DNA of 64,000 nucleotides, taken from NCBI GenBank assembly GCA_963714085.1, contig OY970229.1, positions 96,001-160,000 on the forward strand, in the 5' to 3' direction. This document shows positions 15,164 through 61,418 of this stretch, piece after piece. Made by a program: the position numbers and the translations under genes. A model generated the notes under the pieces. The model was not told the DNA's origin. It worked only from the letters and a program-made list of their open reading frames with translations, and did no database searches. The DNA comes from an uncultured Candidatus Micrarchaeota archaeon. GTDB lineage: Archaea > Micrarchaeota > Micrarchaeia > Anstonellales > Bilamarchaeaceae. Each line of letters starts with the position of its first letter. Positions within the stretch are counted from its first letter, which is position 1.

Positions 15164-16006
15164 TCAATAGAAGCGTATGTCGGTCAAAAGTGTATTGCCC
15201 ATCTGCCCGAGGGATACGGTCACCCTGCCATCGCCAAGGCCGAACTCCCTCTGTTCGCCGACATGCAGGCCGAAATGCCTCGCGTAGGGGACGTCCGGGG
15301 TCGGGTGCCCGAAACAAAGGCAGAAACCCCTGTCTTCCTTATGCGCTTGGGGATCCACGTAGAACAGTATGTATCCCTGGCCCGCATTCGTGACCGCTCT
15401 GTTCTCGATGCGGAACATGGCGCCGCCCTGCATGATGAAGAACCCGTGGCCAAGGTCGCCAAGCCTGACATTGGAGGGGCTTTCCACGAGCAGCTGGTTT
15501 GAAAGGACGGCGCTGCGCCTTGCCGCCGCATCGTCCGTTTTCACCGGCGTCGCTTCGCGGGACGAGAATCTAGGGATCACGGTTGCTGCCGGTTCCCCCA
15601 CCTCGGCCTCCATGAGGCCGTGTTTTCCGGAAACCTTTATCAGCAGCCCCTCGTCGGAAACAAACGAGAAACTCCCCCCGCCGAGGCTCACTCCGCCGCA
15701 CTCCTGGGTGGTGCCTGAGGCAGTATGCTGGATCCTGAACTGCGGATGGCCATGCAAGCTATTGAGGACGATGGAGCATGAGGGGATTATCCCCATGACA
15801 TCCCCTTCCCGGGAGGCCGACGTGAACAGGCTGACCTTGCGTCCGACCAGATGCGCCGCATCCTCAGTGGCGGCGGGGACCGGGGCGGCCTGCGGATCGC
15901 TGCGCCCGAATGTCCTCACGCTGGATCGGAGTGCGGCTCCAAGTCTGGCGACGGCGTCGCCATCACTGTGCGGGGTCGGGACGGTTTTCTGGGTTGGGTT
16001 GACCAT
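15164..16006 (-). CDS. Hypothetical protein (orphan)
   Basis: 280-aa ORF filling the gap between genes; TTTTTATATA box ~30 nt upstream of its ATG; no recognised motif. Confidence 0.65.
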   Translation of the reverse strand: MVNPTQKTVPTPHSDGDAVARLGAALRSSVRTFGRSDPQAAPVPAATEDAAHLVGRKVSLFTSASREGDVMGIIPSCSIVLNSLHGHPQFRIQHTASGTTQECGGVSLGGGSFSFVSDEGLLIKVSGKHGLMEAEVGEPAATVIPRFSSREATPVKTDDAAARRSAVLSNQLLVESPSNVRLGDLGHGFFIMQGGAMFRIENRAVTNAGQGYILFYVDPQAHKEDRGFCLCFGHPTPDVPYARHFGLHVGEQREFGLGDGRVTVSLGQMGNTLLTDIRFY

Positions 16007-16111
16007 AGATCATCGTATTGATTGTGTTCCAAAGTATATAAAAAAGTATCTTTTGTGGGAATCGTGACTTCGAAATATAAATGTTACTACTTATGATATA
16101 TCTTGATTACT

Positions 16112-17146
16112 ATGCGGAGAAACACACCTGTTACAATATCCAAGACATCCATGATAGCCTTGTCCGTCGCCGCGCTCACGGTTTTCGGGGCCTGGAAGGC
16201 CGGCGCCGATCCCGATCATGCCAAGAAGCCGGACCCGGTCCAGAAAGCGGCGGATGTCCCTGCCGCAACGCTCACCCCGGAGCACTGCACCGTCCATCCC
16301 GAGCTCGAGCTCTACGCGGGCAAGCGGAAGCTGGACCCGAAGCTCGTGCGCGCCGTGGCCATAGCGGAGAGCAACCTGGACGCATGCGCGGCCGCACGCG
16401 CAGGAAGCAGCTGGGGCCCGAACTGCTATTCGCTCGGCTATGATTATGTGCCTGACCCGGAGTCCAGATGCAACAACGCCTCCGAGAGCCCGGGACAGGC
16501 CGGCTCGCCCCTCTGGCGCTACTGCGGCCTGGGGCTCATGCAGACCCTGGAGCCCCCTTACACTTTCTGGCCCGCACTAGTTCCGGACGGGAAATACGGC
16601 CCGTACAGCTCCGGCGGCCAGAAGCAGCTCTTCCAGGAGGCGCAGCTCAGAGGCAGGATGAGCTTCCTGCTGGACGCGAAGGCGTGCTCGCCAGCGTTCA
16701 ATCCGTTCAATCCGGAGCACTCCGCCTGCCTGGGGACCCACAAGCTCGCGGCAGCCATGGACGGGGCGGGGAAGCTGGCTGAGTCCAGCACGCAGGAGCT
16801 CGGGAATCCTGGCCTGGCGGCAACGAAAGCGATAACGGCGTATCTCGCGCTGCACTACTACTACGGCGACGGCGGCTATGCCCAGGGCTGGATAGCCGAG
16901 TTCGGAAGGCGCCGCGCGCAGACAAAGGAGTTCTGCGACAGGAAAGCTAGGAAGAAGGACCCGGTATGCGTGGAGCGGAAAATCTCCGCGCGCCCGGAAT
17001 GCTACGGCATGGACGATTTCATCGCGTTCGTGCGGGAGTGCAGGTTCCGGGACGGCCCGGGGCAGAGCGAAGCGCCGTTCTACGGGGACTACGGCTCTAA
17101 GGTCCTCTCCGTGGCCAGGGGATTGGAGAACACCTGCGGGAAATAG
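16112..17146 (+). CDS. Secreted lytic transglycosylase (SLT/GH23)-like protein, Cys-rich
   Basis: Signal/TM segment (MIALSVAALTVFGAWKAGA); LDPKLVRAVAIAES (motif I with catalytic Glu), GLGLMQ (motif II), FNPEHSACLGTHKL, ALHYYYGDG (AYNxG-like). Confidence 0.75.
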   Translation: MRRNTPVTISKTSMIALSVAALTVFGAWKAGADPDHAKKPDPVQKAADVPAATLTPEHCTVHPELELYAGKRKLDPKLVRAVAIAESNLDACAAARAGSSWGPNCYSLGYDYVPDPESRCNNASESPGQAGSPLWRYCGLGLMQTLEPPYTFWPALVPDGKYGPYSSGGQKQLFQEAQLRGRMSFLLDAKACSPAFNPFNPEHSACLGTHKLAAAMDGAGKLAESSTQELGNPGLAATKAITAYLALHYYYGDGGYAQGWIAEFGRRRAQTKEFCDRKARKKDPVCVERKISARPECYGMDDFIAFVRECRFRDGPGQSEAPFYGDYGSKVLSVARGLENTCGK

Positions 17147-17244
17147 GAGCGGGAGGCTGCTTTTTAGTTTGTGCTCTTTATGTGTAAATTAGTGGAAAGG
17201 AAGGTTTATAATATGTTTATGCCTTACCTATAAATGGCGCAGTC

Positions 17245-19068
17245 ATGGGATCCAAACTCAGAAGTGATGCTAGAGGCAACGACACCAGGCCTAGCGCCAG
17301 CCCGGACATCTCAGCTGCGATAAGGGCATCAAAAAGAGGACCTGATAGGAACAGCGCCGCATTCAATGACGATTCCAGATTGGTAGTCAACGCAGGCAAG
17401 ATAACGACCTTGATCACGGACCTCGACCGTACACTCTGGGAGGGTGTTCTCGCAGAGAAGCAGAAGGTGAGGGTAAACGACGAGTACTACGACTTTTTGA
17501 GATCGTTGCATAGAAAAGGGATAACTGTATTTGCCGTATCGAAGAACGACGAAGAGGAGGTAAATGCGGCATTTGACAGGCTGGCGATAGACAAGGGATT
17601 GTTCACTGCGGTCATCGCGAACTGGGATCCGAAATATTTAACGATAGAGAGGCTTGTCCAGTGCACCGGATTAAGGCCTGAAACCGTCGTATTGGTAGAT
17701 GATAATCCATTGGAAAGGACCGAGGTGAAGGCCCGGACTCCGCAGATATACTGCATTGATAGTTCCAATTGGGATGTGTTACGCGGAGTCCCGTATATCA
17801 TGCGGCGCAGGAACCAGGCATCGAGCGAGATACGGTCCAGGGCCAACCGCTACAAAACCGCCATCTATGCCTCGGATTCGAGACTCCGGGCTGCTGATGA
17901 CGCCGAATTTTACCGGGGATTGAAAAGAGAGATCAGCATCGGCCAGATAGGCGTGGATGATATCGGCCGTTATACCCGCCTGCTGGTGGAGACGCATCGC
18001 ATCAACTTCAATCCAGGGAAATTCGCTGAGTACGGCGCAGCGCTGGAATATCTGCACGAAAGGTTGAACGCGGGGGACAGGTTATTCGCGATTTCCACCA
18101 AAGAGCGCGGCATGTCATTGGGGCTCACCGGGGCCCTGGTCGTGCATCACGAAAACGGCCGGGCCCGGATTACCGACGGGACCTTTTCCTGCGGCATAAT
18201 CGGCAGGGATTTCGAGCAGAGGTCCATCCTTGCGTTGATTGAGATCCTGAAACGGGAGGCCGTAGCCACGCTCGAGGTCTGCGTGACCCCCACAGGGACG
18301 AACAAGCGGATGAAAGACATACTGGTCAGCCTTGGTTTTTCGGAAGAAAGACAAGAAGATGGCAAAATCATATACTCGATGGATATCACGCACTACGCAC
18401 CCAAAGAGACTTATGGCTGGATCGCATTGAGCACCGAAGCTCCGGAATTGGACTATGAGGGTCATCCTGCGGTAATCGGATTTTTCGATGCGCACGTCAA
18501 GCCGCTGATCCGGGAAAGATCCAACCTGGTGAACATCGGTTCAAGCCGCGGGGAGGTCCTGGGTTTCCTTCAAGATGACGTCCGGGAGGAGTTTGACCGG
18601 TTTTTAGCTGCCAGAAAGGCGAATTATCTGAAGATAGACAAAATCGCATACCCGGGCGAGGATAACATTGTCGCTGACGCAGAGGATCTCAAGGGAATCG
18701 TACCCAACAGAAGCCAGGACCTGGTGATGGCAGTCGAATTGCTCGAGCACACGGAGCATTTCTGGCTGGTGATAAACGAGATGAACAGGATTGCCAAACA
18801 GGACGGCCTCATATTCCTGACCGTGCCCTCGTTCAACTATCCGAAACATGAATACCCTATTGATCTCTGGCGTATCGGCCCCGAAACAATCTCCAAATTT
18901 TTCCCTCCCGCATATTTCGAGACCTTGCGTCTTGAGACCGAAGGGATGGAAAAGAGCCCGAGGAGAACGATGATCCTCGTGAGAAAATTAAAGGACGGGT
19001 CCCCGGAGCAAGGCATGCCTGAAGGGGGAAGAACAAACTGGAAAACGGGATTGACTCTTTTCCCCTGA
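17245..19068 (+). CDS. FkbH-like HAD-IIIC phosphatase fused to acyltransferase-like and class I methyltransferase-like domains
   Basis: ITDLDRTLWEG (DxDxT), VSKND, VLVDDNPLER, FSCGIIGR; C-terminal DLVMAVELLEH...GLIFLTVP...HEYPIDLWR. Confidence 0.8.
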   Translation: MGSKLRSDARGNDTRPSASPDISAAIRASKRGPDRNSAAFNDDSRLVVNAGKITTLITDLDRTLWEGVLAEKQKVRVNDEYYDFLRSLHRKGITVFAVSKNDEEEVNAAFDRLAIDKGLFTAVIANWDPKYLTIERLVQCTGLRPETVVLVDDNPLERTEVKARTPQIYCIDSSNWDVLRGVPYIMRRRNQASSEIRSRANRYKTAIYASDSRLRAADDAEFYRGLKREISIGQIGVDDIGRYTRLLVETHRINFNPGKFAEYGAALEYLHERLNAGDRLFAISTKERGMSLGLTGALVVHHENGRARITDGTFSCGIIGRDFEQRSILALIEILKREAVATLEVCVTPTGTNKRMKDILVSLGFSEERQEDGKIIYSMDITHYAPKETYGWIALSTEAPELDYEGHPAVIGFFDAHVKPLIRERSNLVNIGSSRGEVLGFLQDDVREEFDRFLAARKANYLKIDKIAYPGEDNIVADAEDLKGIVPNRSQDLVMAVELLEHTEHFWLVINEMNRIAKQDGLIFLTVPSFNYPKHEYPIDLWRIGPETISKFFPPAYFETLRLETEGMEKSPRRTMILVRKLKDGSPEQGMPEGGRTNWKTGLTLFP

Positions 19069-23392: not shown

Positions 23393-24160
23393 TCAGGCAA
23401 AAGACGTTGCGTATATGTCCCTCCTCGAGTTCAGGTAGGCCAGCAGCGCGCTCGTTTTGGCCGGGTTGTTCTTGAACAGAGCGAGATATGCGTTCGCCTT
23501 GTTCTGGAAATCGTTCGCATACGCATCTCCGCCGTTTATCGCCTTTCCGACCGACCAGTAGCTCTTGGATTGCGCCAGGGATACCAGTCCCTTCCCCTTA
23601 TAATACGCCACGAATATCTTCGCTGCGTAATTCGGCTGCAGGGCCTTGATCTGGGGGCACACCGCCGCGTTGGTCGCAGTGCACTTCCACTGGTTTTTGC
23701 ATCCACATACGTTGGTCTGTGGCGTCGAGGTGCCGATACAGTCAGAGCCGCAGTACGTCTGATAATTGTACTTGTGCGTTATCTGTATGTAGCCCCTGCC
23801 TTTGTAATCAACGCCTCCGTCATAGGGCGTCGATCTGCACGCGCCGTTGATCTTGTAGGTGCATCCCGGCCCCATGCCGTAATCCCCGTTCTCCTCGCCA
23901 GGCACATAGCCTATCCCTCCAACCTCCTTATCCAGCGTCGCCATGGTCGCGGCAAGCAGTTCTGGAGTCATGCTCATCCCGTTGTCGTTGAACGACAGGG
24001 AGATTGACCGCAACGCGGTTTGCAAATTCGCGTTCGAGGTCGAGCCATGATTGAACAGCGCAGGGAAGTCGCTGCTTCCCGTGTACGCAAATGCCGCCCC
24101 CGCCATCTGGCATAAGACCAGGATGGCAAACACCAGTCCGAATCTTTTCATGGTTTTCAT
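23393..24160 (-). CDS. Secreted GH19-like (chitinase/endolysin, lysozyme fold) glycoside hydrolase
   Basis: Signal peptide MKTMKRFGLVFAILVLCQMAGAAFA; AATMATLDKEVG, YKGRGYIQITHKYNY and AINGG motifs. Confidence 0.8.
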   Translation of the reverse strand: MKTMKRFGLVFAILVLCQMAGAAFAYTGSSDFPALFNHGSTSNANLQTALRSISLSFNDNGMSMTPELLAATMATLDKEVGGIGYVPGEENGDYGMGPGCTYKINGACRSTPYDGGVDYKGRGYIQITHKYNYQTYCGSDCIGTSTPQTNVCGCKNQWKCTATNAAVCPQIKALQPNYAAKIFVAYYKGKGLVSLAQSKSYWSVGKAINGGDAYANDFQNKANAYLALFKNNPAKTSALLAYLNSRRDIYATSFA

Positions 24161-24183
24161 AGATACCACGTAATCATCTGGGA

Positions 24184-24858
24184 GTGCCGGGTGCATTAGG
24201 CTGGCGCCGCTGTCGGACGGCCCCAGACCGCTTCCTGGCCGCTGTGGAGCGGTGGCAGGATGATATTCTTGCGTGCCATCAGCATATCATGGCAAGGGGC
24301 GAGGCGGCGGGCGCAAGGCTCATGGAGGTGTCGGACCGGCTCGTCGGGATACGCGCCGGCATCCGGAGGCCGAACGTGGAATCCAAGATACGCGTGCTTA
24401 GGGAGAAGGTGCGCAGGATCGCGTCCGGGCGCTGCACCGCGGAGCAGGCGGACAGGTTGATTGAGATACTCTGCCTTCCGGTGGACCTGGATTTCCGCCA
24501 GAGGATGGAACTCGAGTCGTTCGACGCCGCGAGCCTGGCGAAGAAGAGCCTGGCTCTCGCGGAGCTGATGGCCTGCACCCCGGAGCTCGGGGCGCTCCAG
24601 TTCTGGCGGCCCGGCCTTGGCCCGGCGGCCCTGGGGGGCGCGGACGCGAAAAAGAGGATGTCCAGGCTGAGGCTCATGCCAGAGGTAAGGCGAAGGAAGA
24701 AGGATCGCATATTCCGCATGTTGAAGATCCCGGCATCCGTGGAGACGCTAGTCCATGACATAGAGCGCGATTACATGGTCCTTGACGAATGCCGGAAGCT
24801 CGAGGAGAAAATCGACCATTGCCTTTCGAAGATAAAGGAAAACCTGGCGCGGCTTTAA
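24184..24858 (+). CDS. Hypothetical helical protein (start uncertain)
   Basis: Only long ORF on the + strand between the flanking genes; coiled-coil-like composition. Confidence 0.5.
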   Translation: MPGALGWRRCRTAPDRFLAAVERWQDDILACHQHIMARGEAAGARLMEVSDRLVGIRAGIRRPNVESKIRVLREKVRRIASGRCTAEQADRLIEILCLPVDLDFRQRMELESFDAASLAKKSLALAELMACTPELGALQFWRPGLGPAALGGADAKKRMSRLRLMPEVRRRKKDRIFRMLKIPASVETLVHDIERDYMVLDECRKLEEKIDHCLSKIKENLARL

Positions 24859-24903
24859 GCCTTCAGGGCGCTTTTTAAACTGTATTACTAAAAATGTTAA
24901 AGT

Positions 24904-26226
24904 ATGGCTGCAACGCCTAGGTGCGGGCTTCAGATACCGAAAAGATGCCCCGAATGGCTCCACATCCCCAGCGATACCGCGGCATGGCATAGCAAGAGGC
25001 CGTGGGTCGACCGGCCGGAATGCGACTATTACGACTGGGCCAGGGGCGTGCGCTCCGCCGACGCCGCACACCAGCTGGCGCACAGGAGCTTCGAATCGCT
25101 TTTCAGCCTCAGCCTCCGCGAGGTTGCGGACAGGCACGCCCAGGTGGCAGAAGAAGTGCGGGGAAAGATCTGCAGCGCGTTCAACAGGAACCCGGCGAAC
25201 AGCGTCAGGCCCGAGCACGTCGTTCTGGGGCAAAGCATCTCCGAGCTGTCCAATCTGGCCGCGTATCTGCTGTTCTTGAGCTTCCAGAAATTCTGCATTC
25301 CGGAGGAAGGCAGGTACACGTATCAGCAGTTTTTCAACGCATTATACCTTCCAGCCGAGGTGGCGAGAAAAAAGGCCACGCAACAGGTTTTCCGCGTCAA
25401 TGCCGGTTATCCGTTCTATGAGTACAAACCTGAAAAAATCGAAGCATGCGGAGGCAATCCTTACGACTGCTATTGCGACTTCAGCCGTATGGCGGCTGGC
25501 AGGGAACTGCCCATAAGCGCATGGGAACTCGCTACCCGGGAGGTTTCCCATGACGGTTTTTGTTCGTGCGTCCATCACAAGCGAATGCCACGCATCGATA
25601 AAGAACCGGAAGGCATTTTTAGATTTGGCGACGGGGCGCATGTGAGCAATTTTTCCGAGATTGACCTCGCGCGATGGGACGCGTTATTCGGCAGTTTCGG
25701 AAAGTTTTTGGGCGGGGAACCGCTTGCCTTTGCGATAATGAGCGACCGGATGCTCGATCATCTGGAAAAATCCGGGCACGGGCTCAGAAAAATCGCAGGC
25801 CAATTCGCACCAGAAGCAGGTTTAGGTGCGGATTGCACCGAAACCGCCCATTGGATATCTTTGCCGGAATTGGAGGCTGCGAATGCCGTTTTGGGCCATT
25901 ATCTGTCTTTGCCGCAACTGCCCATGCATTATGCATATTCTCATTGCGCCACGTCTGGCAGTTACTATGAAGGTTACGCGCGGCTGCTCAGGGTCGTTTC
26001 GGAATCATTCGCCGAATACAAGGGCCTCGGAATAGGCTATATCGAAAATGCATGTGACAATCCAGTTTGTTGGTCCTACAGGTTCCGGGTGTCATTTTCA
26101 CAGTACCAGGCTGTGGACCCCGAACGGGCCAGGAAGATGCTCGATGACGCCAATCAGGTCTATCAGCATTTGAGGACCCGGGAAGCGTTGGAGAGGAAAG
26201 TGCTATGGGTTCCGAAATCCGAATAG
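24904..26226 (+). CDS. Divergent class V PLP-dependent aminotransferase/desulfurase-fold protein
   Basis: EEVRGKICSAF...PEHVVLGQSISE, GDGAH, SFGKFLGGEP (PLP Lys position), HWISLPEL shared with 26955-28646. Confidence 0.6.
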   Translation: MAATPRCGLQIPKRCPEWLHIPSDTAAWHSKRPWVDRPECDYYDWARGVRSADAAHQLAHRSFESLFSLSLREVADRHAQVAEEVRGKICSAFNRNPANSVRPEHVVLGQSISELSNLAAYLLFLSFQKFCIPEEGRYTYQQFFNALYLPAEVARKKATQQVFRVNAGYPFYEYKPEKIEACGGNPYDCYCDFSRMAAGRELPISAWELATREVSHDGFCSCVHHKRMPRIDKEPEGIFRFGDGAHVSNFSEIDLARWDALFGSFGKFLGGEPLAFAIMSDRMLDHLEKSGHGLRKIAGQFAPEAGLGADCTETAHWISLPELEAANAVLGHYLSLPQLPMHYAYSHCATSGSYYEGYARLLRVVSESFAEYKGLGIGYIENACDNPVCWSYRFRVSFSQYQAVDPERARKMLDDANQVYQHLRTREALERKVLWVPKSE

Positions 26227-26958
26227 CTACCTCATCACCCTCATTATGTCGCTCATTATCGGCATGAGCTTTCGCTCCGACTTCCTGAGCAGCTCCGCGG
26301 CAGTGCTTTCGCTTATGCCGAGCTTCGCGCCCAGCTCCTGGAGGCTTACCTTCTTCGGTTCCTCATAATATCCGTACCTGCACGCAAGGTCGAACAGCTC
26401 GTACTGGCGCGGCGTGAGGAGCTCTGACGCGGATTTGAGCTGGAGGTAGCCGCTGGAAGAGAATATGTCGAAATTGACCTTCTCCTTCGTAGTTATGAAC
26501 CTCTTGGACTTGAGCCTTATGTCGTAGTTGCCCTCCACAATCTCCAGGAATTTCCGGTAGTTATGGTAGCTCGGCGCGAAGAGCGTGACCACGTCCGTGC
26601 CGTTCTGGCTGTAGGTCGGCTGGAGCCATGCAACCCCCGAGCTTGCGAGCTTTGGGGCAGTGGATATGCAGTTGTCCGCTCGTATCGCGACCCAGCTCGT
26701 CCGCTCGCCCTTCTGGACCACCCGCACCTCCCTTACCTCCTTCAATGACCTGGACCGCTCCAGCATCCCCGCAAGCTCGTCGCTGCCTATCTCGAACAGG
26801 TTGGTTACGGTGTTCCTGTCGCTGGACAGCGTCATCAGCCACCGTATCTTGATGCCGTGGAGCCTTTCGCTGGCGTCGCAGCTGACGCACTTATGGACCT
26901 GCTCCAGTTCCACGATCAGAGGCGATTCCCCCATGACCCTGTTTTCGTCTTTTTTCAT
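26227..26958 (-). CDS. HTH-10 (bacterio-opsin activator-like) transcription regulator
   Basis: LTPRQYELFDLACRYGYYEEPKKVSLQELGAKLGISESTAAELLRKSERKL. Confidence 0.9.
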   Translation of the reverse strand: MKKDENRVMGESPLIVELEQVHKCVSCDASERLHGIKIRWLMTLSSDRNTVTNLFEIGSDELAGMLERSRSLKEVREVRVVQKGERTSWVAIRADNCISTAPKLASSGVAWLQPTYSQNGTDVVTLFAPSYHNYRKFLEIVEGNYDIRLKSKRFITTKEKVNFDIFSSSGYLQLKSASELLTPRQYELFDLACRYGYYEEPKKVSLQELGAKLGISESTAAELLRKSERKLMPIMSDIMRVMR

Positions 26959-28646
26959 TTATTAACCTTCCCCCGCTCTGGAGCGATGCGCGCCTCGGCT
27001 GCATTCCGTATGGCCTGGTCGCCATGATAGCCGGCTACTGCCCGCAACAGCCACTCGTCCTGCGTGGATTGGACCAGTGCCATCGCCCGGCTCGGCTCTG
27101 CGAAGAAAATCGCATCGAGCTTCTCGAGATTTTTCATGATTCTGCCGTCATTTTTTCTATTCACGGAGGCGTCTTCGATCAGGCCCCTCTCTAGGGAATA
27201 TGCAAGCCTGCTTGCCAAACCCCTCACATGCTCGATGCTGTGCTCCGGGGACAAGCTTATCCTGATAGCATACGCCACGTACAAGAAACCTGTGAGCACG
27301 GGCCTGCCCGAAATGTCGTGCTCGGACAGGTTCTCGAATGTTATCGCGTATGGTGCCATGTCCTTCCTGAACGTGATTTTCAGCTCGAAATCCATCGATT
27401 GGTATCCGGGGTCGTTCTTCATGATCGCGAAACTGACGAAATGGGGCGCTGAATCCACCGAAGGAAGCCGGATGCCCGACCAGGCAGCATTGAACGAAAA
27501 CACCGCCGCGCAGAGATAGTCCTTGAGCTTCTTCATCTGCCTAGCCCGCTCTTCCACATCCAGGCTTTCTATCGTAGCATACAGGGAAAACAACTCGGGC
27601 AACGATACCCAGTGCGCGCATCCTGCCGCGTCCTTCGGTCCCACTGCCAGGCTGGTTTCAGGGCTGAACTGGAACGCGATCCTCGGCCAGGATGTCCTCG
27701 GCAGCTCCTTCTCCATGATGCCGAGTACCTCGTCGCTGACATAGCACATGCCGACGGTGGGCTCTCCGCCGAGTGCTTTCGATGAGTTCATCACCACCAC
27801 ATCGCCTAATTCAGCGGCCTTGAACCTCAATGCTCCGACAGAATGGCTGGCATCGACGATATGCAGCCACACGGGCCCGATCCTTTCTATCTCCTGCCAA
27901 ATCGCCCGGAGGTCTTTCTCACCGCTAATTCGGTTGACGTGCGAGCAGTACGCCACGTTCGGCCCGCCACCGAGTTTTCCAGCCGCAGGTCTGCCACTCG
28001 GGGGCATGGGGCTCCGATGCAGGTCGGCATCCGAAACATACTCGAATTCCCCCGTTATTTCAGACGAACCGGTATTCGTGACGAATTTCAAACCAAACCG
28101 CTCTCTGAAGTGACGCATTTCTGCGATATCGTCGAAACTCCGCAACAGCTGGTCCTTTGCCCCGAAATTCTGGAAGGTCAGCCTGTCCGCGGTCCGGCGA
28201 TTCTCCGTTACAAATATCTCAAGAGCATTGAATTCGCTGCGATCAGCAACAAGGTTGTATCTTCTTTGCCGCCCCAGGCTCAACAGTACGGGTATCAATG
28301 TCCGCATCGCAGAATTCCCGAAAAAGATATTCCTGGGTTCGCATTCCAAAAGCTCTGCCATTCGTTTCCGCGCTGCTTCCGCAAGATTAAATCCGCCGCT
28401 TGCAACCGCCGCGGCCCCCTTTTCACTAAGCAGCCTGGGTGTTATGTCATTGTAATATTCAAGAGCCGCCTCATGGCCCGCGTCGCTTCCCCGTATGCCG
28501 GAAGCAACATCGAAATACCATTTCATCGGTATGTCATTTGGATCGCGGCCGTGTTTTTGTGTTCTGTCGAGAAGGGGCGTTTCGCTCGCCGTTGCGCTAT
28601 GCTGCCAGCGCTCTTTGTGTTTCCACAGCCCCTGACTCTTAAACAT
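26955..28646 (-). CDS. Divergent class V PLP-dependent aminotransferase/desulfurase-fold protein
   Basis: EAARKRMAELLECEPRNIFFGNS, SHVNRISG, IVDASHSVG, NSSKALGGEP, IRISL. Confidence 0.7.
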   Translation of the reverse strand: MFKSQGLWKHKERWQHSATASETPLLDRTQKHGRDPNDIPMKWYFDVASGIRGSDAGHEAALEYYNDITPRLLSEKGAAAVASGGFNLAEAARKRMAELLECEPRNIFFGNSAMRTLIPVLLSLGRQRRYNLVADRSEFNALEIFVTENRRTADRLTFQNFGAKDQLLRSFDDIAEMRHFRERFGLKFVTNTGSSEITGEFEYVSDADLHRSPMPPSGRPAAGKLGGGPNVAYCSHVNRISGEKDLRAIWQEIERIGPVWLHIVDASHSVGALRFKAAELGDVVVMNSSKALGGEPTVGMCYVSDEVLGIMEKELPRTSWPRIAFQFSPETSLAVGPKDAAGCAHWVSLPELFSLYATIESLDVEERARQMKKLKDYLCAAVFSFNAAWSGIRLPSVDSAPHFVSFAIMKNDPGYQSMDFELKITFRKDMAPYAITFENLSEHDISGRPVLTGFLYVAYAIRISLSPEHSIEHVRGLASRLAYSLERGLIEDASVNRKNDGRIMKNLEKLDAIFFAEPSRAMALVQSTQDEWLLRAVAGYHGDQAIRNAAEARIAPERGKVNK

Positions 28647-28699
28647 GTTTTAATTTATGTCAACAAAAGCTTAAAAACTCGCTTGAAGATAGTCTAACC

Positions 28700-29281
28700 A
28701 TGATAGCCGGGCTCGACCTTGCGGGAAGCGGAATGCGCGATACCGGGTACTGCCTGCTTGATGGCAGGAAAGCGAAGGTAGCGATACTGCACAGCGACAG
28801 GGACATACTCGCCGCGCTCAGGAGCGACAGGCCGGACATCGTGGCGATAGACGCCCCGCTCTCGCTCCCCAAAGGCAGGAGGAGCATAGACGTGCGCGAC
28901 GCTCACCATTTCCGCGGATGCGACCTGGAGCTGCGCAAGCTGGGCATACGCTTTTTCCCCATCACATTGGGACCCATGCGCATGCTCACCAAAAGGGGCA
29001 TGTCGCTGAAAAAGAAGATCGCCCGCGCGCTTCCGAAGGCCCGCGTGATCGAGGCGTATCCCGGGGCGGCCTACGACCTGCTCGGAGCGGAGCGCAAAAA
29101 CAAGAAGGCGATACGCTCGCTTTTCCGAAAATACGCGCTCACGCTTCCTGGACGCCCGCTTTCGCAGGACGAGCTGGACGGAGTCTGCTGCGCGCTGGTC
29201 GGGAGGATGTTCGCGGAAGGGGATGCGGTCGAGATAGGCGACAAGAAGGAGGGGACCATCATAATACCGAAAGCCAAATGA
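28700..29281 (+). CDS. DUF429 family RNase H-fold nuclease-like protein
   Basis: AGLDLAG, VAIDAPLSLP, IEAYP, DELDG motifs. Confidence 0.85.
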   Translation: MIAGLDLAGSGMRDTGYCLLDGRKAKVAILHSDRDILAALRSDRPDIVAIDAPLSLPKGRRSIDVRDAHHFRGCDLELRKLGIRFFPITLGPMRMLTKRGMSLKKKIARALPKARVIEAYPGAAYDLLGAERKNKKAIRSLFRKYALTLPGRPLSQDELDGVCCALVGRMFAEGDAVEIGDKKEGTIIIPKAK

Positions 29282-29305
29282 ATGCCTTCGCGATGCAGAA
29301 TCGCT

Positions 29306-31655: not shown

Positions 31656-31659
31656 CGCT

Positions 31660-48852: not shown

Positions 48853-50457
48853 ATGGCCAGGCATAAGGCCGGAAGGCTCGGCTTCCAGCAATCACGCATG
48901 GTTACGCCCCCTGCAGGCGCTTTCAGTCCGTATCTGGCAGGGCCGGACACGGGGATGCGGACCGGCGCGCCTCACGGATCCGTGCCGGCGAAGCGCTTGT
49001 GGAGGCGCCGCATGCTCGGCCCGGTCGCCGGCCTCATGCTGGGCGCGCTTTTTGTTTGCGGGATACAGGGCGGGGCGCAGGGGCGCACGCACCATGGGAT
49101 GCGCGCGGACGGCCTGCTTTCCGAGGCTCTTGTCATGGCGGTAATGGACAAACATGCCGCCATAGCGGAGATGCTCCTCAAGCGCGGGGCGGATGCGAAC
49201 GCAACCGGTCCTTTCAACAAGACCGTCCTGATGTGGGCTGCGGAAAACGGGGATGTAGAGACGGTGAACCTGCTCTTGGACCGCAATGTCGACGTGAACC
49301 TCAAGGACACCTGGTTCAGCGGCACCGCGCTGATGCGGGCCGCGGAGAGGGGCCACGGCGAGATCGTGGACCTGCTGCTGAGCAACTATGCGGATGTCAA
49401 TGCCAGGAACAAGAACGGCGATACCGCGCTGACCTTGGCGGTCAGAAGCGGGAGTCCGAGGGTGGTGAACAGCCTGATCGTCGGAGGGGCAGAGATAGAC
49501 GCCAAGAACGCCAACTGGGACACCGCACTGGGCCTGGCGGTGAAGAAGCCGGACGAGGCCCTCGTAGACCTGCTGCTGAGGAAGGGGGCAGACCCCAACG
49601 TGAGGGACAGATCCGGCGTCAGCCTGCTTGAGATCGCCTCTGCGACCGGGGACAGGAGGGATGTCACGCTGCTGATACGGAACGGGGCCCGCGTAGATCC
49701 GAATCTGAAGGACACGGTCACCATGTGGAACGCCTACCAGAAGAGGAGGACGGCGATAGAGCGGTCCGAGAAGCCTGGACTGGGCGAGAAAGACGACGGG
49801 GAGACCGCGCTCAAGCGCGCGTACGGAGAGCTGGTCATAGGCGAGAAAGAGGCGCTGGAATTGCACGAGAGGTTCGGGATAGAGGAGTTCGACAGGTATC
49901 CCAAAGGGGTGCTCGAGAGCATGTACGCTAACCTCGGCAGGCAGGCCGCCAGGCCGCCCATCCTCCACGTAGTCGCGAGATCGGATTACAGCGGCGCGGT
50001 CTATGACTACATCGGCTGGGTGTTCAAGCTGGACCATTACAAGGCGTTCATAGCCGAAGCGGAAAGCGTGGTGGACCTACGGTCCCGGGTGAGGTATACC
50101 GCAGAGACCTACGGCAGGATCGAGTCGATGGTGCTTGGGGGCCATGGCGAGAAGGACAGGATACAGCTCGGATACAAGGAGAATGGAGGAATCCTCACGC
50201 TGCGCGATGAGAACGACATCGCGCAGCTGAAGCCGTATTTCGTGAGCAATCCGACCATCGTGATCGACGCGTGTTCGACCGGGGAAGACGAGATGGCCAT
50301 AGCCGCCATGTTCTCGAGGGCGCTCGATGCGACCGCGTTCGCACCGGTCGCGGTCGCGGAGTTCCGTGGATGCGAAGTGGACGACCAGGGAAGGATAACC
50401 GGGGCGCGCTTCGACGTGCCGACCGCCAAGTTCGTGAGCGGCAAGCTGGTGAAGTGA
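48853..50457 (+). CDS. Ankyrin repeat protein with C-terminal His/Cys (clan CD/DUF4347-like) domain
   Basis: TM segment, ~6 ankyrin repeats (TALMRAAERGHGEIVDLLL), then MVLGGHG...IVIDACSTG. Confidence 0.85.
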   Translation: MARHKAGRLGFQQSRMVTPPAGAFSPYLAGPDTGMRTGAPHGSVPAKRLWRRRMLGPVAGLMLGALFVCGIQGGAQGRTHHGMRADGLLSEALVMAVMDKHAAIAEMLLKRGADANATGPFNKTVLMWAAENGDVETVNLLLDRNVDVNLKDTWFSGTALMRAAERGHGEIVDLLLSNYADVNARNKNGDTALTLAVRSGSPRVVNSLIVGGAEIDAKNANWDTALGLAVKKPDEALVDLLLRKGADPNVRDRSGVSLLEIASATGDRRDVTLLIRNGARVDPNLKDTVTMWNAYQKRRTAIERSEKPGLGEKDDGETALKRAYGELVIGEKEALELHERFGIEEFDRYPKGVLESMYANLGRQAARPPILHVVARSDYSGAVYDYIGWVFKLDHYKAFIAEAESVVDLRSRVRYTAETYGRIESMVLGGHGEKDRIQLGYKENGGILTLRDENDIAQLKPYFVSNPTIVIDACSTGEDEMAIAAMFSRALDATAFAPVAVAEFRGCEVDDQGRITGARFDVPTAKFVSGKLVK

Positions 50458-52771: not shown

Positions 52772-52775
52772 AGAA

Positions 52776-56646: not shown

Positions 56647-57981
56647 ATGCCAGAGACAGCAACCGCCAGGGTTATTTTTGCGCCTAAGGCCAGCCGCGCT
56701 GTCCCGCCCAGGCGCTGCAAGCCGCATTTCTTCGCATGCCAGACAGAGGGCATACGCAAGCAGCCAAGGGGCGCCGGCAAAACCCGCAGGAAAGCCCTTC
56801 TGAACAGCGAGCTGGCAGGCCTCTGGGAGTTCGCTAAGAAGAGAAAGGCGACCATCTCGAAGAAAGAGGAGGCGGAGATGTTCGGGATATACCTGCGCGT
56901 GGTCAGGCGCATGCAGGAGCTGAAGCATCTGCGGGAAAGGTGGAACGGACCCGTGAAACAGGAGCTCGTGCGCCTTTCCGAGGCGAAGGAGCTTGCGGAG
57001 AGGGTGGTCGCGAGCAGAGGGGACATGAGATACCTCAGGGAACTCGCTGCAGAGAAGAGGCGGTCGCTCGAGAAAGAGGAGGAATACGCCGTCTTCCGGA
57101 TTTATAGGCGGGTGCTCCCCCGCATGATGAACCTCGGGAAGGGAGGCATTGCAGCGAACGCGGAACACGGACTCGTGGCTCAGGAGATGGAGCGGCTTTC
57201 CGAGGCGAAAAGGCTTGCCGAGACCATAATCATCCAGACCATGGAAAAGCAGTTCTGGATGACAGCCAAATACGTGATCCACCCCTCGGTCATAGAAAAA
57301 TCAGACCTCGTTCAGGAGGCCTGCATGGCTGTAGTAAGAAGAGCTATGCGCACCTTTGACCCTGACCAGGACTGCAGAATCTCCACGTACTGCCAGTTAG
57401 GGATAACGCGGGCCATGAAACGCGCGGTTCAGAATCAGGGGAAGACCATCAGGATCCCGTGCAATACGTACACCATAAGCGCCAAGGTCAACAGAGCTTA
57501 CATGGAATGCCGCAAATCTGGCTACGAGCCGACCGCGCAGGAGATAGCTGATCTTGCCGGACTCGACCTGAAGAAGGTCGTGAGATGCCTCGAAATGCCG
57601 GATACGCTCAGCATGGACGTTAGGCCAGAGGACAGGCTTGCATTAATCGATACGATTCCGGACAATGGCATGGATCCGCTGGAGACGCTTGTCAACGCTG
57701 AGGTGGGAAGCGTGGTGGAGACGCTCCTTGGGAAACTGAGGCCCGACCAGCGCAGGATATTGTGCATGAGGCAGGGCCTGGGCTGCAAAGAGCACACGTT
57801 GAAGGAGATCGCAGAAGTAGATGGATGCAGCGGCGAGAACATAAGGCAGAAGCTGTTCAAGATAGCGAGAAGGATACGCAATGCGAACAAGGCGCTGCTG
57901 CGCGAGTACCAGGGCTATGGCCCCGATGACGAAGCGCCATCCCATGAACCCGGAGAGCAGGCCAGCGCCGGGCAGCGGTAG
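56647..57981 (+). CDS. Divergent sigma70-family (RpoD/RpoS-like) protein A
   Basis: DLVQEA, FDPDQDCRISTY, QGKTIRIP, EPTAQEIA, LSMD, LIDTIPD, LRPDQRRILCMRQGL, TLKEIA...ENIRQ; collinear with sigma regions 2, 3 and 4. Confidence 0.88.
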   Translation: MPETATARVIFAPKASRAVPPRRCKPHFFACQTEGIRKQPRGAGKTRRKALLNSELAGLWEFAKKRKATISKKEEAEMFGIYLRVVRRMQELKHLRERWNGPVKQELVRLSEAKELAERVVASRGDMRYLRELAAEKRRSLEKEEEYAVFRIYRRVLPRMMNLGKGGIAANAEHGLVAQEMERLSEAKRLAETIIIQTMEKQFWMTAKYVIHPSVIEKSDLVQEACMAVVRRAMRTFDPDQDCRISTYCQLGITRAMKRAVQNQGKTIRIPCNTYTISAKVNRAYMECRKSGYEPTAQEIADLAGLDLKKVVRCLEMPDTLSMDVRPEDRLALIDTIPDNGMDPLETLVNAEVGSVVETLLGKLRPDQRRILCMRQGLGCKEHTLKEIAEVDGCSGENIRQKLFKIARRIRNANKALLREYQGYGPDDEAPSHEPGEQASAGQR

Positions 57982-58082: not shown

Positions 58083-59426
58083 ATGCTCGCAGCAGAAACG
58101 GCCAGGCGCACTCATATCCAATCAGCCGGCACGGCCCGTCCTGGACGCAAAGCATTGAGGCTCGTCGCGTGCGAGACGGAGACGATCCGCAAGCATCCAG
58201 CCAACATCAACGGGGCCCGCGGGAAGCCGCTGTCTGCGAAGGAGATGAGATACCTCGAAAGGCTCGCTGCAGAAAGGAAGGAGGTCATCGGGAAAAAGGA
58301 TGAGGCCGAGGTATCCGCGATATACCTGCGCGTGGTCTGGCGCATGGAGGAGCTGCAGGCGAAGCGGGCCACCAGGGCCGTGAGACTCGAACTCGAGCAG
58401 CTCTCCAATGCCAAGGGGCTTGCCGAGGGAATGGTCGTGAACGAGGCCGAGCTGCGGCAGCTCCGGGAAATCGCGGCGGAGAGGGCCAAGACGCTCGAGC
58501 CAGGAGTGGAACGGTACATCTGCACCATCTATCGGCGCGTGCACCCCCGCCTCATGAGTCTCAAGGAGGTCAACGAGGCGCAGAAAAAGATACCCGGGCA
58601 GCAGGGCTGCAAGGCCGAAAAGGAGCCCGGGCTCATCGAACGGGAGATCAAACGGCTCGCAGAGCCGAAGAGGCTTGTCGAGGATATAGTCACCACCGGG
58701 TTGAACGCGTTATTCTATGACAGGGCCCGGCGCATCTTAAGGTACCCTGATTCCATAGAGCGGTGCGATCTCGTCAATGAAACCAAGATTGCTGTCATAA
58801 ATAACGTCATGCCCCGTTTTGATCCGACCCTCGGTTACAGGCTGTCCACGTACTGCAACTTGCCGATGAACCGGGTCATGGTACGCTACGTACAGACTCA
58901 TAAGAGGGATATCAGGTGGCCGGTCTACATATGCGAGGCGATAGGCAGGTTGAGCAAGGCTTCGCAACTGCGCCGGAACCTGGAAGGCAGGGAACAGAGC
59001 ATCGAAGAAATAAGGAAAACCACGGATCTCCCCCCGAGCGTGATCGCAGCGTGCATGAGAGCGCCGCAAACGGTCAGCCTGAGCGAAAAGCTGCGCCACG
59101 GTGAAGGGAAGAAGCGGATCGACCGTATCGAGGATACAAGCAGCGTGAATCCGCTGGACGCGGTTTTCGATAGCAAAGCGAAGGATCTGGTGAACGAGTG
59201 CCTCGACGTACTCAGCCCGAGGTATGCGAGGATAATGCGCATGAGATACGGCCAGGACCAGACGCTCGACGCGATCGCTGACCGGGAGGGCATATCAAGA
59301 GAGAGGGTGAGGCAGATACTGGCCAAAGCCTTGAGGACGCTGCGCAGGAAGAATAGGATGAAGCTGTGCGATTTCTACGGGGGCAAACCGCCCTGTTACG
59401 ACCAGCAGGCTAATCTTGAGATGTAG
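58083..59426 (+). CDS. Divergent sigma70-family (RpoD/RpoS-like) protein B
   Basis: DLVNE, RFDPTLGYRLSTY, DIRWPV, GREQSIEEI, VSLS, IEDTSSVNP, LSPRYARIMRMRYG, QTLDAIADREGISRERVRQILAKALRTLR. Confidence 0.9.
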   Translation: MLAAETARRTHIQSAGTARPGRKALRLVACETETIRKHPANINGARGKPLSAKEMRYLERLAAERKEVIGKKDEAEVSAIYLRVVWRMEELQAKRATRAVRLELEQLSNAKGLAEGMVVNEAELRQLREIAAERAKTLEPGVERYICTIYRRVHPRLMSLKEVNEAQKKIPGQQGCKAEKEPGLIEREIKRLAEPKRLVEDIVTTGLNALFYDRARRILRYPDSIERCDLVNETKIAVINNVMPRFDPTLGYRLSTYCNLPMNRVMVRYVQTHKRDIRWPVYICEAIGRLSKASQLRRNLEGREQSIEEIRKTTDLPPSVIAACMRAPQTVSLSEKLRHGEGKKRIDRIEDTSSVNPLDAVFDSKAKDLVNECLDVLSPRYARIMRMRYGQDQTLDAIADREGISRERVRQILAKALRTLRRKNRMKLCDFYGGKPPCYDQQANLEM

Positions 59427-60154: not shown

Positions 60155-60187
60155 CGGTTTATGCTGAAATCAGACCAGGTGTATAAG

Positions 60188-60304
60188 ATGAAAGTGCCTG
60201 CCAGCCACATAAAGCACATGAAAGACAAAAGGAAGTTCAACGAGAGCAAGGCTTATCTTGAGACGAAGAGGGACATGAACAAGCGCAGGAAGCGCAGGGA
60301 CTGA
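60188..60304 (+). CDS. Small highly basic protein (38 aa; alternative start 60161)
   Basis: Hand translation MKVPASHIKHMKDKRKFNESKAYLETKRDMNKRRKRRD*; fills the gap between nth and a convergent gene. Confidence 0.55.
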   Translation: MKVPASHIKHMKDKRKFNESKAYLETKRDMNKRRKRRD

Positions 60305-60308
60305 GCAG

Positions 60309-61418
60309 TCACGGAAGGCAGTTTATCGGCGGCATCTTTCGCGCCGGCTCGAACGAGTCCCCGATCAAGCCTGCGAACACCCGGGCACCTTTGATTTCGA
60401 CGCTACGGAGAACCGAAACCAATGGCGCATCGGCCGGGTTCTTCGGATTCTCCGCGATCCGCTCTATGCCGCGGGCGAAGAGCTCGTTCTCGTATATCCC
60501 GTTCAGCTGGGCCCGCAGGGACGCGAGCTCCTCCAGAGGCAGCTCAGGCACGGAGACCTCGGAGCCGAGGGAGCCGATCAGCCGCTTGAATTCCCGGAGG
60601 CCGCCCAGGACGCCATCGATATTCCCCATGGTGGAATCGACGTATCCCTTGAAATCCACCGAAGGGTCCGGCTTGTCGATCTCGGCGTCGAGGGCCTTGG
60701 TGGATTCGTTCCAGGCCATCAGAAGGTTGCCGGTCCGGACCAGGACCACGGCGCAGGATCGCAATGTTCTGGCATCCATGGACTCGCCACCGGAGTCGTC
60801 TATGGCGTCCATGCGCTCTTTTACCTTATCGTGCGAATCGAAGAAGGCGCGGATCAGCCGGCCTTCGATTTCCATGGAGCTCTTCATGAACACGGAGAAC
60901 GTGTCGAACAGATACCCTTCGAAGACCAGCTCAGACGTGGCGCTGGGCGTGGTCCTGTCCAGGGCTTGGGCAGCACGCTTCCGGTCGTCGCATCCCATGC
61001 GCTCCCAGAGGTAGTGACCCACCTCATGGTCCACGGCGCTGTTTAAGATGCGTTGGTCGTAGGTTATCTCGAAAGACGCGACCCGGCCGTCATCCTTGAA
61101 GCTGATCCGTCCCTCTAAAGACTGGAGCTTTCTGAGGTAAGCGGCCTCGGGCTCAGGCATGCGTCTCAAAATGGAGTCCGAAACCGCCCTCGGGACCAGG
61201 GAGACGGCGGGTATGGCGTCCGCCACCGGCTGGGGCCATCGCCCAAGCTCGCGCTCCACCGAGCCGCCGCGGCGTATGCCCTCGCACCGGGCATGCAGGG
61301 TCCCGAGCTCCTCCCTGATGGACCTTCTCTCCGCCATTATCGAAAGGCATTCGCGGGTCGCGGTAGCGGTAAGCGCCGTGATGGCGACTGCTGCGATGAT
61401 GCGATTGCGCGGCTTCAT
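60309..61418 (-). CDS. Exported hypothetical protein with HExxH zincin motif
   Basis: N-terminal MKPRNRIIAAVAITALTA signal; AVDHEVGHYLW and distal NELFAR; TTATAAATA box upstream. Confidence 0.65.
   Translation of the reverse strand: MKPRNRIIAAVAITALTATATRECLSIMAERRSIREELGTLHARCEGIRRGGSVERELGRWPQPVADAIPAVSLVPRAVSDSILRRMPEPEAAYLRKLQSLEGRISFKDDGRVASFEITYDQRILNSAVDHEVGHYLWERMGCDDRKRAAQALDRTTPSATSELVFEGYLFDTFSVFMKSSMEIEGRLIRAFFDSHDKVKERMDAIDDSGGESMDARTLRSCAVVLVRTGNLLMAWNESTKALDAEIDKPDPSVDFKGYVDSTMGNIDGVLGGLREFKRLIGSLGSEVSVPELPLEELASLRAQLNGIYENELFARGIERIAENPKNPADAPLVSVLRSVEIKGARVFAGLIGDSFEPARKMPPINCLP

Follow-up and report, generated by a model that had tools for sequence, protein, structure and literature searches.

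Murein-like lytic transglycosylases (fam00969; Pacearchaeota and Woesearchaeota) and sigma-70 genes (fam00359) have been described in DPANN archaea, and in the available part of that source (Castelle et al. 2021, PMC8204110) the transglycosylases are taken to indicate bacterial-wall attachment and possible bacterial hosts. There, the SLT and sigma genes of DPANN had already led to the proposal of bacterial hosts, and Table S3 of Castelle et al. and the S2 Table of Strock et al. may hold an earlier listing of Micrarchaeota SLT or sigma families. Modular peptidoglycan hydrolases comprise a catalytic and a cell-wall-binding domain (Strock et al. 2025). The described hosts of Micrarchaeota are Thermoplasmatales and Sulfolobales, and Anstonellales show broad biosynthesis (PMC12892359). 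The T4SS of Patescibacteria and the archaeal Ced/Ted systems are described in the accessible portion of PMC12102498. The life of any DPANN archaeon on bacteria is an open question in the available part of PMC8204110, to which the present results add handles: an order-wide lipoprotein of wall-cutting type, which was not detected in the family known from archaeal hosts, and another signal-peptide class, gained repeatedly by spare SLT copies.

The window, a stretch of 64,000 nucleotides, belongs to the genome of a Micrarchaeota archaeon of the order Anstonellales (G000). A preliminary description had combined its orphan genes into one coherent arsenal directed at bacteria; this is not supported, as the basic shift at the protein starts does not differ between accessory genes that match Pfam and those that do not. 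The window genes are best explained as a sample drawn from the archaeon's fast-evolving accessory gene pool, with no single arsenal. Our preferred reading, which is held tentatively, is that the archaeon, an organism working on bacterial walls, exports loose basic tails through its own Sec pathway.

Gene classes and promoters

Genome-wide, an own promoter was scored for 239 of 393 accessory ATG genes and for 107 of 312 core genes. Accessory genes mostly possess their own promoter and evolve fast under purifying selection. All six N-termini quoted in the preliminary description are real ORF starts, and the own TATA box attributed to these genes is present in five of them as an AT-rich TATA-like box ~25-30 nt upstream; the MARHK gene (48853), which starts 19 nt after ank1, has none. 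The dispersed arrangement proposed for the accessory genes holds only partly, because they cluster (216 adjacent pairs vs 159 +/- 8 after shuffling). Among the assigned folds, sigma-70, ankyrin, beta-CA, methyltransferase and SLT were confirmed, while the PLP assignment is weak (PF00266, E 0.064). The Rfam search of the window returned one tRNA only, and the sequencing-run search gave no RNA run among the matches listed; the best DNA run may be the source sample itself, and the other DNA runs contribute small shares. As a side observation, ABCE1 gave no match at E 1e-100 in three genomes of families f15/f19.

The SLT-fold protein and its order-wide parent

The SLT/GH23 lytic-transglycosylase-fold protein of 344 aa (16112..17146, + strand) is a catalytic-domain-only duplicate of a barrel+SLT lipoprotein encoded at G000:C1:453161-455590. 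Its earlier classification as an orphan is wrong, with homologs in 90 of 99 family genomes. The parent (~800-950 aa), whose partner domain is a GH5/GH26-like (clan GH-A-like) barrel, is encoded at full length in 107 of the 111 genomes of the order. Conservation across the phylum was rejected: the lipoprotein occurs in 127 of 301 Micrarchaeota genomes and in 0/74 and 0/54 genomes of the two largest outside families, the former carrying the label Micrarchaeaceae, a family for which archaeal hosts have been described.

The catalytic Glu (ES motif) is retained in 28/28 and 123/127 alignment rows, and in the G-x-MQ motif the Gly is invariant and the Gln is conserved at >= 90%. The fold model (pLDDT 86) superimposes on MltF (5aa1) with Z 12.9 and rmsd 3.5 over 168 aligned residues; peptidoglycan lytic transglycosylases occupy ranks 1-4 and 6-8 of the best structural matches, and the top Foldseek rows are MltE, MltF and MltC, but at E >= 0.09. 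The protein thus resembles the family-1 lytic transglycosylases (GH23/PF01464; MltF, MltC, MltE, Slt70) in fold (Z 10.3-12.9), catalytic Glu-Ser and G-x-MQ, and differs from them in its many Cys-rich insertions. With PF01464 the window protein scores 16.8 bits, below the gathering cut-off of 21.3, and the long forms 14.1 and 19.4; a PDB sequence search with SLT profiles gave only matches at E > 0.1. In the peptide-pattern genome scan the alignment offered no conserved stretch, and the single protein gave 3 loci. An extracellular SLT domain in DPANN, and the same attachment inference, are shared with fam00969 as presented in the available part of PMC8204110; by description, the present proteins are set apart by their occurrence in Micrarchaeota, as a barrel+SLT lipoprotein with recurrent SLT-only copies that carry another signal class.

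The near-invariant Glu, the MltF-like fold and the presence in 107 of 111 order genomes support the wall-directed part of the preferred reading. The SLT protein, with its intact catalytic Glu, appears from sequence to be the one strong bacteria-directed part and to be ancient and conserved within the order. Judging from the fold and the catalytic Glu, both the lipoprotein and its extra SLT-only copy most probably cleave peptidoglycan on the archaeal cell surface, which would let the cell attach to bacteria, breach them or feed on them or on wall debris. Since the fold is common to GH23 chitinase (Z 8.4) and GH124 cellulase (Z 8.5), the peptidoglycan target is not certain. No PG-binding module was found in the SLT protein, PF01471 (PG_binding_1) was not found in G000, and a Pfam scan of 224 of 421 accessory proteins outside the window (best five families each) revealed no peptidoglycan-binding, amidase or M23 family.

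An archaeal partner, or no obligate host, would offer another explanation, in which the accessory genes would have come by horizontal transfer and be decaying in part, with glycan enzymes that target archaeal surface glycan, biofilm polysaccharide or dead walls. Both the missing PG_binding_1 and the GH5/GH26-like partner barrel would suit it, as would the archaeal hosts described for Micrarchaeota and the broad Anstonellales biosynthesis (PMC12892359), the mevalonate-pathway gene set read from translations within the window, and sigma copies devoid of the WW dyad. This explanation is nevertheless considered unlikely, though of appreciable weight, given that the best SLT structural matches are peptidoglycan lytic transglycosylases, that the Glu is invariant across the order and that the lipoprotein was not detected in the Micrarchaeaceae-labelled genomes.

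Basic N-terminal starts of accessory proteins

The leader enrichment that had been suspected in the orphans is confirmed as a difference in composition: accessory starts are more basic and acid-poor, with a net charge per residue over residues 2-25 of +0.068 (325 accessory proteins) vs +0.015 (266 core proteins; p 4.8e-13, AUC 0.67), and a strong basic start is found in 50/312 accessory and 21/257 core proteins. The typical accessory start spans 25-40 residues and is basic, acid-poor and hydrophobe-poor. The enrichment is a modest shift and not a motif, no shared leader motif being seen by eye among accessory starts. Four of the six quoted leaders are indeed basic (+6, +4, +5, +4), whereas the other two carry +1 and 0; a net charge of +1 to +2 at the start was found for beta-CA, 42883 and both PLP-like proteins. 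The shift is reproduced in two relatives of the same family and is not significant in another family. mRNA 5' end bias is ruled out, as strong-promoter core genes show no shift.

The shift has the same size in accessory genes with (AUC 0.65, n=83) and without (AUC 0.66, n=78) a Pfam match. This modest, motif-free behavior supports the preferred reading, according to which the basic start of soluble proteins would be a loosely constrained tail that carries no address. The same reading is supported by the start being the least conserved part of the protein (identity 0.51 vs 0.62, p 9e-5, 70 ortholog pairs; dN/dS 0.45 vs 0.35) and by the comparison of N-ends with C-ends, which is not significant in the 29 fast ortholog pairs whose starts agree (p 0.17). 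In no-Pfam proteins, low-complexity C-tails equal the N-starts (PRSQTH 0.326 vs 0.329). Conversely, in 3/3 family genomes the N-ends of accessory proteins exceed the C-ends of the same proteins in basicity (p 9e-5, 9e-4 and 2e-2), with core genes showing the reverse, and acid depletion is still present at 34% GC; both observations count against loose tails. Arg/Pro richness tracks GC and is not significant in G007 (34% GC). Pure drift to random sequence was rejected for its poor composition fit (excess of Lys, Thr, Gln and Ala; low Cys, Trp and His), which also weighs against the preferred reading.

A start-calling artefact, with upstream ATGs appending non-coding-like residues to atypical genes, might be suspected because the gene calls derive from a home-made caller, only 41/70 starts align exactly with G001 orthologs and codon class contributes to defining accessory genes. 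It is very improbable: the basic-shift AUC rises to 0.75 in the strong-promoter subset, the shift holds in homology-only classes (523 vs 266 proteins, p 1.6e-7) and between rate-defined fast and slow ortholog pairs whose starts agree (p 3e-4, AUC 0.71), and codons 1-15 have a dN/dS of 0.45.

The N-specific basic shift in three genomes would also be expected from a two-step effector delivery into a bacterial host, where the basic start acts as a loose signal for a VirB4/CedB-like-powered contact machine. Soluble cargo (sigma decoys, kinases, methyltransferases) would act in the host cytoplasm, and cargo with the second signal class described below would be carried onward by host Sec and lipoprotein machinery, the wall being reached from inside. 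We regard this delivery as improbable; the starts hold no motif, and ordinary enzymes share the shift. Effectors of type III secretion and contractile injection systems have loose, composition-coded N-terminal signals. The accessory starts are similar to such leaders in being motif-free, basic or disordered stretches on unrelated folds, but the enrichment here is weak. In G033, the SLT lipoprotein ortholog lacks the SLT motif and no significant basic shift is seen, a coincidence in one genome only that is consistent with delivery.

Two classes of signal peptides

Where a hydrophobic stretch follows, the basic start forms the long n-region in a signal peptide of the second class. The native class is short and Leu-rich, with a Gly-Cys end, whereas the second (accessory) class displays a long basic n-region, an Ala/Gly-rich h-region and often Ser/Ala/Thr-Cys. 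The bacterial lipobox accommodates Ser, Ala or Thr at -1. Among lipobox-like ends assigned by sequence, Gly precedes the Cys in 53/58 native-class and 11/22 second-class (long-n) cases (p 1.3e-4). Haloarchaeal lipobox signals have 98.8% Gly at -1 in the available part of Storf et al. 2010 (PMC2945643); the native class obeys this L-x-G-C rule, and the second class often departs from it. No earlier report of two signal-peptide classes in Micrarchaeota was found in the literature searched.

Tat signals combine a long basic n-region with a weakly hydrophobic Ala/Gly h-region, a layout shared by the second class, in which the twin Arg is irregular. TatC was found in 0/101 order genomes (the control search is positive in 11/14) and gave no match in G000; consequently, the long Arg-rich n-regions are not meant for an own Tat pathway, which is rejected. 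An own bacterial signal peptidase II is likewise rejected (PF01252 matches = 0).

According to the preferred reading, proteins with an h-region would be exported or anchored by the cell's own Sec pathway, in line with the 11 of 22 long-n lipoboxes that keep the -1 Gly. The drop in -1 Gly is in itself a point against this reading, as is the finding that SLT-only copies arose at least 3 times, each with the second signal class (quick tree). Such convergent gain hints at transfer of proteins to a bacterial partner and speaks for two-step delivery, as do the lack of TatC and the -1 residues that leave the haloarchaeal Gly rule and fit the bacterial lipobox; the N-end of the window SLT copy, with an 11-aa basic n-region and an Ala-rich h-region, has no lipobox Cys, which does not suit it. 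If host-directed, the second class marks candidate effectors across ~100 genomes; if not, it still shows the surface route of fast-evolving DPANN genes.

Candidate secretion machinery

The search for VirB4 and pilus genes suggested earlier was positive: the genome encodes VirB4-like ATPases as well as two loci for type IV pili. The VirB4-like clusters at C1:781.6k and 474.7k are conserved in G033, and a mobile copy lies at 293.8k; all score below NCBIfam cut-offs. The two chromosomal clusters are compatible with delivery into a host, and the likeness to Patescibacteria T4SS and archaeal Ced/Ted systems, as covered in the accessible portion of PMC12102498, is that a small lineage associated with hosts encodes a VirB4-like ATPase on its chromosome. 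Compared with T4SS-type effectors, the VirB4-like motor is present here, and of a shared signal only the compositional shift is known. Delivery is disfavored by the best score of the ATPase, to DNA-import CedB (far below cut-off), and by its occurrence in all 5 genomes tested from families without the SLT protein.

The sigma-70-like pair

The first sigma-70-like protein (56647..57981, + strand) has regions 2-4, a degenerate region 4.2, a leader of +5 and its own promoter; its tandem paralog (58083..59426, + strand) follows a duplicated promoter, keeps RERVRQ in region 4.2 and has a leader of +4. TIGR02937 exceeds its cut-off of 42.9 in both (59.3 and 79.2), and PF04542/04539/04545 are matched by the first. 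The proteins had been put forward as sigma-like manipulators of transcription: regions 2-4 are present, but the promoter-melting residues are lost, the WW dyad of region 2.3 being replaced in both copies (it is kept in one G001 copy), and no PF00140 (region 1.2) was found in the pair. With fam00359, as described in the available part of PMC8204110, the pair shares sigma regions 2-4 of bacterial group 1/2 type and archaeal promoters; the tandem arrangement, and a repeated helical N-domain in place of region 1.2, differ. From its sequence, the pair is best explained as a diverging bacterial acquisition.

Neither sigma-70 region 2 nor the SLT lipoprotein was found in the 74 Micrarchaeaceae-labelled genomes, as delivery would predict. 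Region 2 is, however, patchy (36/301 genomes), with none found in families f6 and f9, both of which carry SLT. It is quite improbable that Anstonellales are parasites or predators that inject basic-start proteins into bacteria, a subset with a host Sec/lipoprotein signal, and whose sigma decoys jam transcription; if true, this would be an archaeon-to-bacterium effector system.

The variable block and other window genes

An 11-gene variable block (23393..35135) holds the GH19-like gene, two PLP-like paralogs, an HTH_10 regulator, DUF429 and two paralog pairs; it has no match in the fetched part of same-genus G001, where its flanking genes adjoin. The GH19-like lysozyme-fold protein (23393..24160, - strand) is encoded in 2/301 Micrarchaeota genomes and is 61-69% identical to most matches. 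Its motif GRG-x-IQ-x-T and Glu line up with class II chitinase 1dxj (E 0.0015), and PF00182 gives E 0.17. Its two named relatives are Methanothrix proteins (66-69%), which favors an archaeal partner. Of the two lysozyme-fold hydrolases first proposed, SLT stands with an intact catalytic Glu, whereas the GH19-like enzyme has a native-type signal and archaeal named relatives. The block also contains a no-family protein of 413 aa (29306..30547, - strand) with a second-class signal (basic n-region of 22 aa, h-region rich in Ala/Gly, lipobox-like SGAC at its end), convergent PLP-enzyme-like paralogs (24904-26226, + strand; 26955-28646, - strand; 25% identical, weak fold assignment) and tandem methyltransferase-like paralogs (32643..35135, + strand) with duplicated promoters and Pro-rich, weakly charged starts (+1, +2).

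The ankyrin + protease-like protein (48853..50457, + strand) has a long basic leader, a hydrophobic anchor, ankyrin repeats and a His/Cys C-domain (GHG...DACS), for which the best ESM Atlas lead is DUF4347 (score 0.88); the leader of its G001 ortholog is likewise long but different in sequence. Ankyrin matches to Legionella effector models were rejected, being far below cut-off and explained by the repeat. The adjacent membrane-anchored protein (47280..48833, + strand) has degenerate ankyrin-like repeats by eye, no Pfam match and 40% identity to its G001 ortholog.

The remaining genes include a no-family orphan of 280 aa (15164..16006, - strand) with a Pro/Thr-rich start of net charge 0, a protein with FkbH-like HAD and methyltransferase-like domains (17245..19068, + strand) and a low-complexity start, and a beta-carbonic anhydrase (37391..38614, + strand) of typical codon class with a ~140-aa N-extension and no basic leader. 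Of two zincin candidates, the one at 60309..61418 (- strand) contains HExxH, behind a short basic start and an Ala/Thr-rich anchor; the assignment was not confirmed for the small protein at 42883..43500 (+ strand), which has three paralogs in the genome and neither HExxH nor a basic leader. The presumed giant adhesin, outside the region first described (1919..11563, - strand), is a HYR (17 stretches) + beta-helix surface protein, with a signal of native type.

Gene Classes and the Basic N-Terminal Shift

The source genome (G000) is a single contig (C1) of 1.57 Mb with a GC content of 57%, for which a custom two-class hexamer caller combined with an upstream promoter matrix gives 1421 genes. 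The window corresponds to C1:96001-160000. The organism is taken to belong to Anstonellales, a label borne by entries that cluster with a protein from another genome of its order. Core genes are those whose tblastn match to G033 spans more than half of the gene; G033 belongs to a different family, and 828 kb of it was compared. Accessory genes have atypical codons and no G033 match. The same classification was applied to a same-genus relative (G001, 590 kb) and a same-family relative (G007, 520 kb). Against G001, core genes (n = 176) have a median identity of 86% and accessory genes (n = 130) one of 52%. At an Alba gene (window 12996-13307 (-)) the caller erroneously placed a gene on the opposite strand.

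The preliminary description proposed, as a speculation, that dispersed orphan genes, many of them with basic leaders, form an effector arsenal directed at bacteria. The six N-termini quoted there are genuine ORF starts; four of them are basic and two are not. Accessory proteins as a class do start more basic than core proteins: in a comparison that left out proteins with hydrophobic N-ends, the net charge per residue at positions 2-25 is +0.068 in 325 accessory vs +0.015 in 266 core proteins (p = 4.8e-13, AUC 0.67). The shift reaches an AUC of 0.75 in the strong-promoter subset and is gradually lost by residues 30-50. It is replicated in G001 (AUC 0.65, p = 3e-4) and G007 (AUC 0.67, p = 2e-4), is not significant in G033 (AUC 0.55, p = 0.2), and persists when the gene classes rest on homology only (p = 1.6e-7) and when ortholog pairs with agreeing starts are grouped by rate (p = 3e-4). 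Relative to their own C-ends, accessory N-ends are more basic in G000, G001 and G007, whereas core genes tend to the opposite. Accessory proteins carry an N-terminal basic shift.

Several observations count against the leader being a signal: a strong basic start occurs in only 50/312 accessory and 21/257 core proteins of G000, the shift is equal in accessory genes with and without Pfam matches, the C-tails of the accessory proteins with no Pfam match are similar to their starts, and conservation is lowest at the start of the protein. The strong-start count in G001 (14/93 vs 10/105), the N-end vs C-end comparison in the 29 best-checked fast ortholog pairs, and the Arg/Pro enrichment at 34% GC are not significant. 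An injection signal is an improbable and speculative reading of these leaders.

Organization and Content of the Accessory Genes

An own promoter precedes 239 of 393 accessory and 107 of 312 core genes in G000. The accessory genes, first described as scattered, are in fact clustered (216 adjacent pairs vs 159 +/- 8 after shuffling). A variable block of 11 genes (window 23393-35135) has no match within the compared G001 DNA, and the glutaredoxin and IlvE genes that flank it are neighbours in G001. Outside the window lie 421 accessory genes; a Pfam scan covered 224 of them, and 116 of these 224 have no match. The matched genes encode ankyrin, HEAT and TPR repeats, kinases, methyltransferases, radical SAM proteins, restriction-modification systems and ordinary metabolic enzymes; amidase, M23 and wall-binding families are absent from the families listed for the 224 genes, and a search of the whole genome for PF01471 was negative.

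SLT Protein

The lytic-transglycosylase-fold (SLT) protein had been counted among the orphans, a description that does not hold, as 90 of the 99 family genomes have homologs, most of them within frames of 800-950 aa. Across the 111 genomes of the order, the SLT profile matches 97 and the full-length profile 107; neither matches any of 74 genomes of family group f15 or 54 of f19. A protein from f15 shares a cluster with an entry that bears the label Micrarchaeaceae, other cluster members being labelled differently; PMC8623467 describes Thermoplasmatales hosts for that family. The catalytic Glu is retained in 28/28 aligned SLT domains and 123/127 covered matches. The SLT model (pLDDT 86) resembles MltF, a Neisseria-type LT, MltC, MltE and Slt70 (Z 10.3-12.9), and also g-type lysozyme (Z 10.6), GH124 (8.5) and GH23 chitinase (8.4). 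The SLT domain is order-wide and intact-looking, and we infer that the organism acts with it on bacterial walls.

The long form of G000 (C1:453161-455590) lies behind a 1606-aa secreted protein. The N-terminal half of this protein forms a clan GH-A-like barrel, modelled at pLDDT 89, which matches GH26 (Foldseek E 1e-6) and GH5 (Z 17.5) and has a single near-invariant Glu. The G033 ortholog (L041:2826-4904) keeps the barrel and lacks the SLT motif, in a genome that is also without a significant basic N-terminal shift. The long form, the order-wide barrel+SLT lipoprotein, also adjoins topoisomerase VI genes; this gene order (G000 C1:453161-460511) recurs in L190 and L192, and the 1606-aa giant also in L191.

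Two Signal-Peptide Classes

Two signal classes exist. Long SLT forms (n = 64) have a median n-region of 3 residues, an h-region rich in Leu/Ile/Phe and Gly at -1 in 59/64. Short forms (n = 10, detected automatically with a pattern that admitted one fragment and missed four short forms) have an n-region of 14.5 residues, a net charge of +6.5 and an h-region rich in Ala/Gly/Ser/Thr (p about 1e-6). Of 13 short forms read by eye, 10 end in Gly/Ala/Ser/Thr-Cys, two of them with Gly; a lipobox Cys is missing both from the window copy (16112..17146 (+)) and from the G001 ortholog of that copy. Across four genomes, -1 Gly is found in 53/58 short-n vs 11/22 long-n signals (p = 1.3e-4), and 18/22 of the long-n signals fall in the atypical codon class. 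The bacterial lipobox permits Gly, Ala or Ser. Of haloarchaeal lipoboxes, 98.8% have Gly (PMC2945643). The non-Gly boxes could also be relaxed boxes or chance cysteines. TatC was found in none of 101 order genomes searched. In a quick tree of 89 SLT domains, one clade holds 9 of the 13 short forms, and four changes are needed, at least three of them forced by strong branches, which indicates that short copies arose repeatedly.

A tandem ankyrin-family set (G000 C1:182981-187450), part of some 16 ankyrin paralogs in the genome, bears second-class signals (long basic n-region) throughout.

Sigma-70 Pair

Both sigma proteins exceed the sigma-70 superfamily cut-off, and their closest outside matches are bacterial group 1/2 sigmas (22-35% over the C-half). 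Region 1.2 and the WW dyad are missing from both, the WW being retained in one G001 copy; the pair could be decoys, or decaying. Among 301 genomes of the phylum, 36 have region 2, which was not found in family groups f15, f19, f6 and f9. ABCE1/RLI at E 1e-100 was not found in G117, G127 and G122 (genomes of f15 and f19) and is strong in f6 and f9. In the window (56647-59426), the N-half of both sigmas consists of a helical unit repeated twice and absent from the bacterial matches, and the two genes have a duplicated upstream sequence in common. A third protein (G000 C1:1528371-1529693) has two Sigma70_r4-like matches without region 2.

Candidate Secretion Machinery and Possible Partner

The genome search for VirB4 and pilus genes recovered three VirB4/CedB-like clusters, two of them chromosomal and one carried by a mobile element, together with two type IV pilus loci. 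The chromosomal clusters (G000 C1:780822-783762 and 470821-477052), each with a membrane protein, an ATPase and a coiled-coil protein, are conserved in another family and are a candidate transfer machine; a VirB4-like ATPase is also present in 5/5 tested genomes from families without the SLT protein. An integrative element at G000 C1:286450-302311 carries VirB4, integrase and methylase.

The GH19-like protein bears a native-type signal (short n-region, Leu-rich, Gly-Cys), occurs in 2/301 genomes, and has Methanothrix as both of its named relatives; the giant protein is an HYR/beta-helix surface protein. The picture of one coherent arsenal is not supported. For the organism itself, a bacterial partner is about evenly balanced between likely and unlikely. 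Castelle 2021 (PMC8204110) describes DPANN sigma-70 genes and large Pace-/Woesearchaeota SLT proteins and considers bacterial hosts possible, Zhang 2024 restates the SLT point, and in Strock 2025 peptidoglycan hydrolases stand out in Nanoarchaeota. A term search of Rao 2025, on Micrarchaeota, and of the paper naming Anstonellales gave none of the words transglycosylase, peptidoglycan, sigma and secretion.

Additional Loci

Six related membrane genes and a 1533-aa lipoprotein (G000 C1:665302-677450) have matches in G033; the lipoprotein matches the barrel profile weakly (E 1e-3; 3e-11 for its G033 counterpart). About eight proteins of ~220 aa with similar starts form a family (window 42883-43500; G000 C1:31612-32973 and 1442750-1446554), whose window member is without HExxH. 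SPFH/band-7 genes (window 40820-42290) form a tandem pair downstream of an ArsR-type HTH membrane protein. Genes of the archaeal modified mevalonate pathway (window 51816-56596, 61457-62356 and 44486-45742) are interleaved with accessory genes and were named from their translations as HMG-CoA reductase, mevalonate kinase, an aconitase-X pair, UbiD, UbiX and IP kinase.
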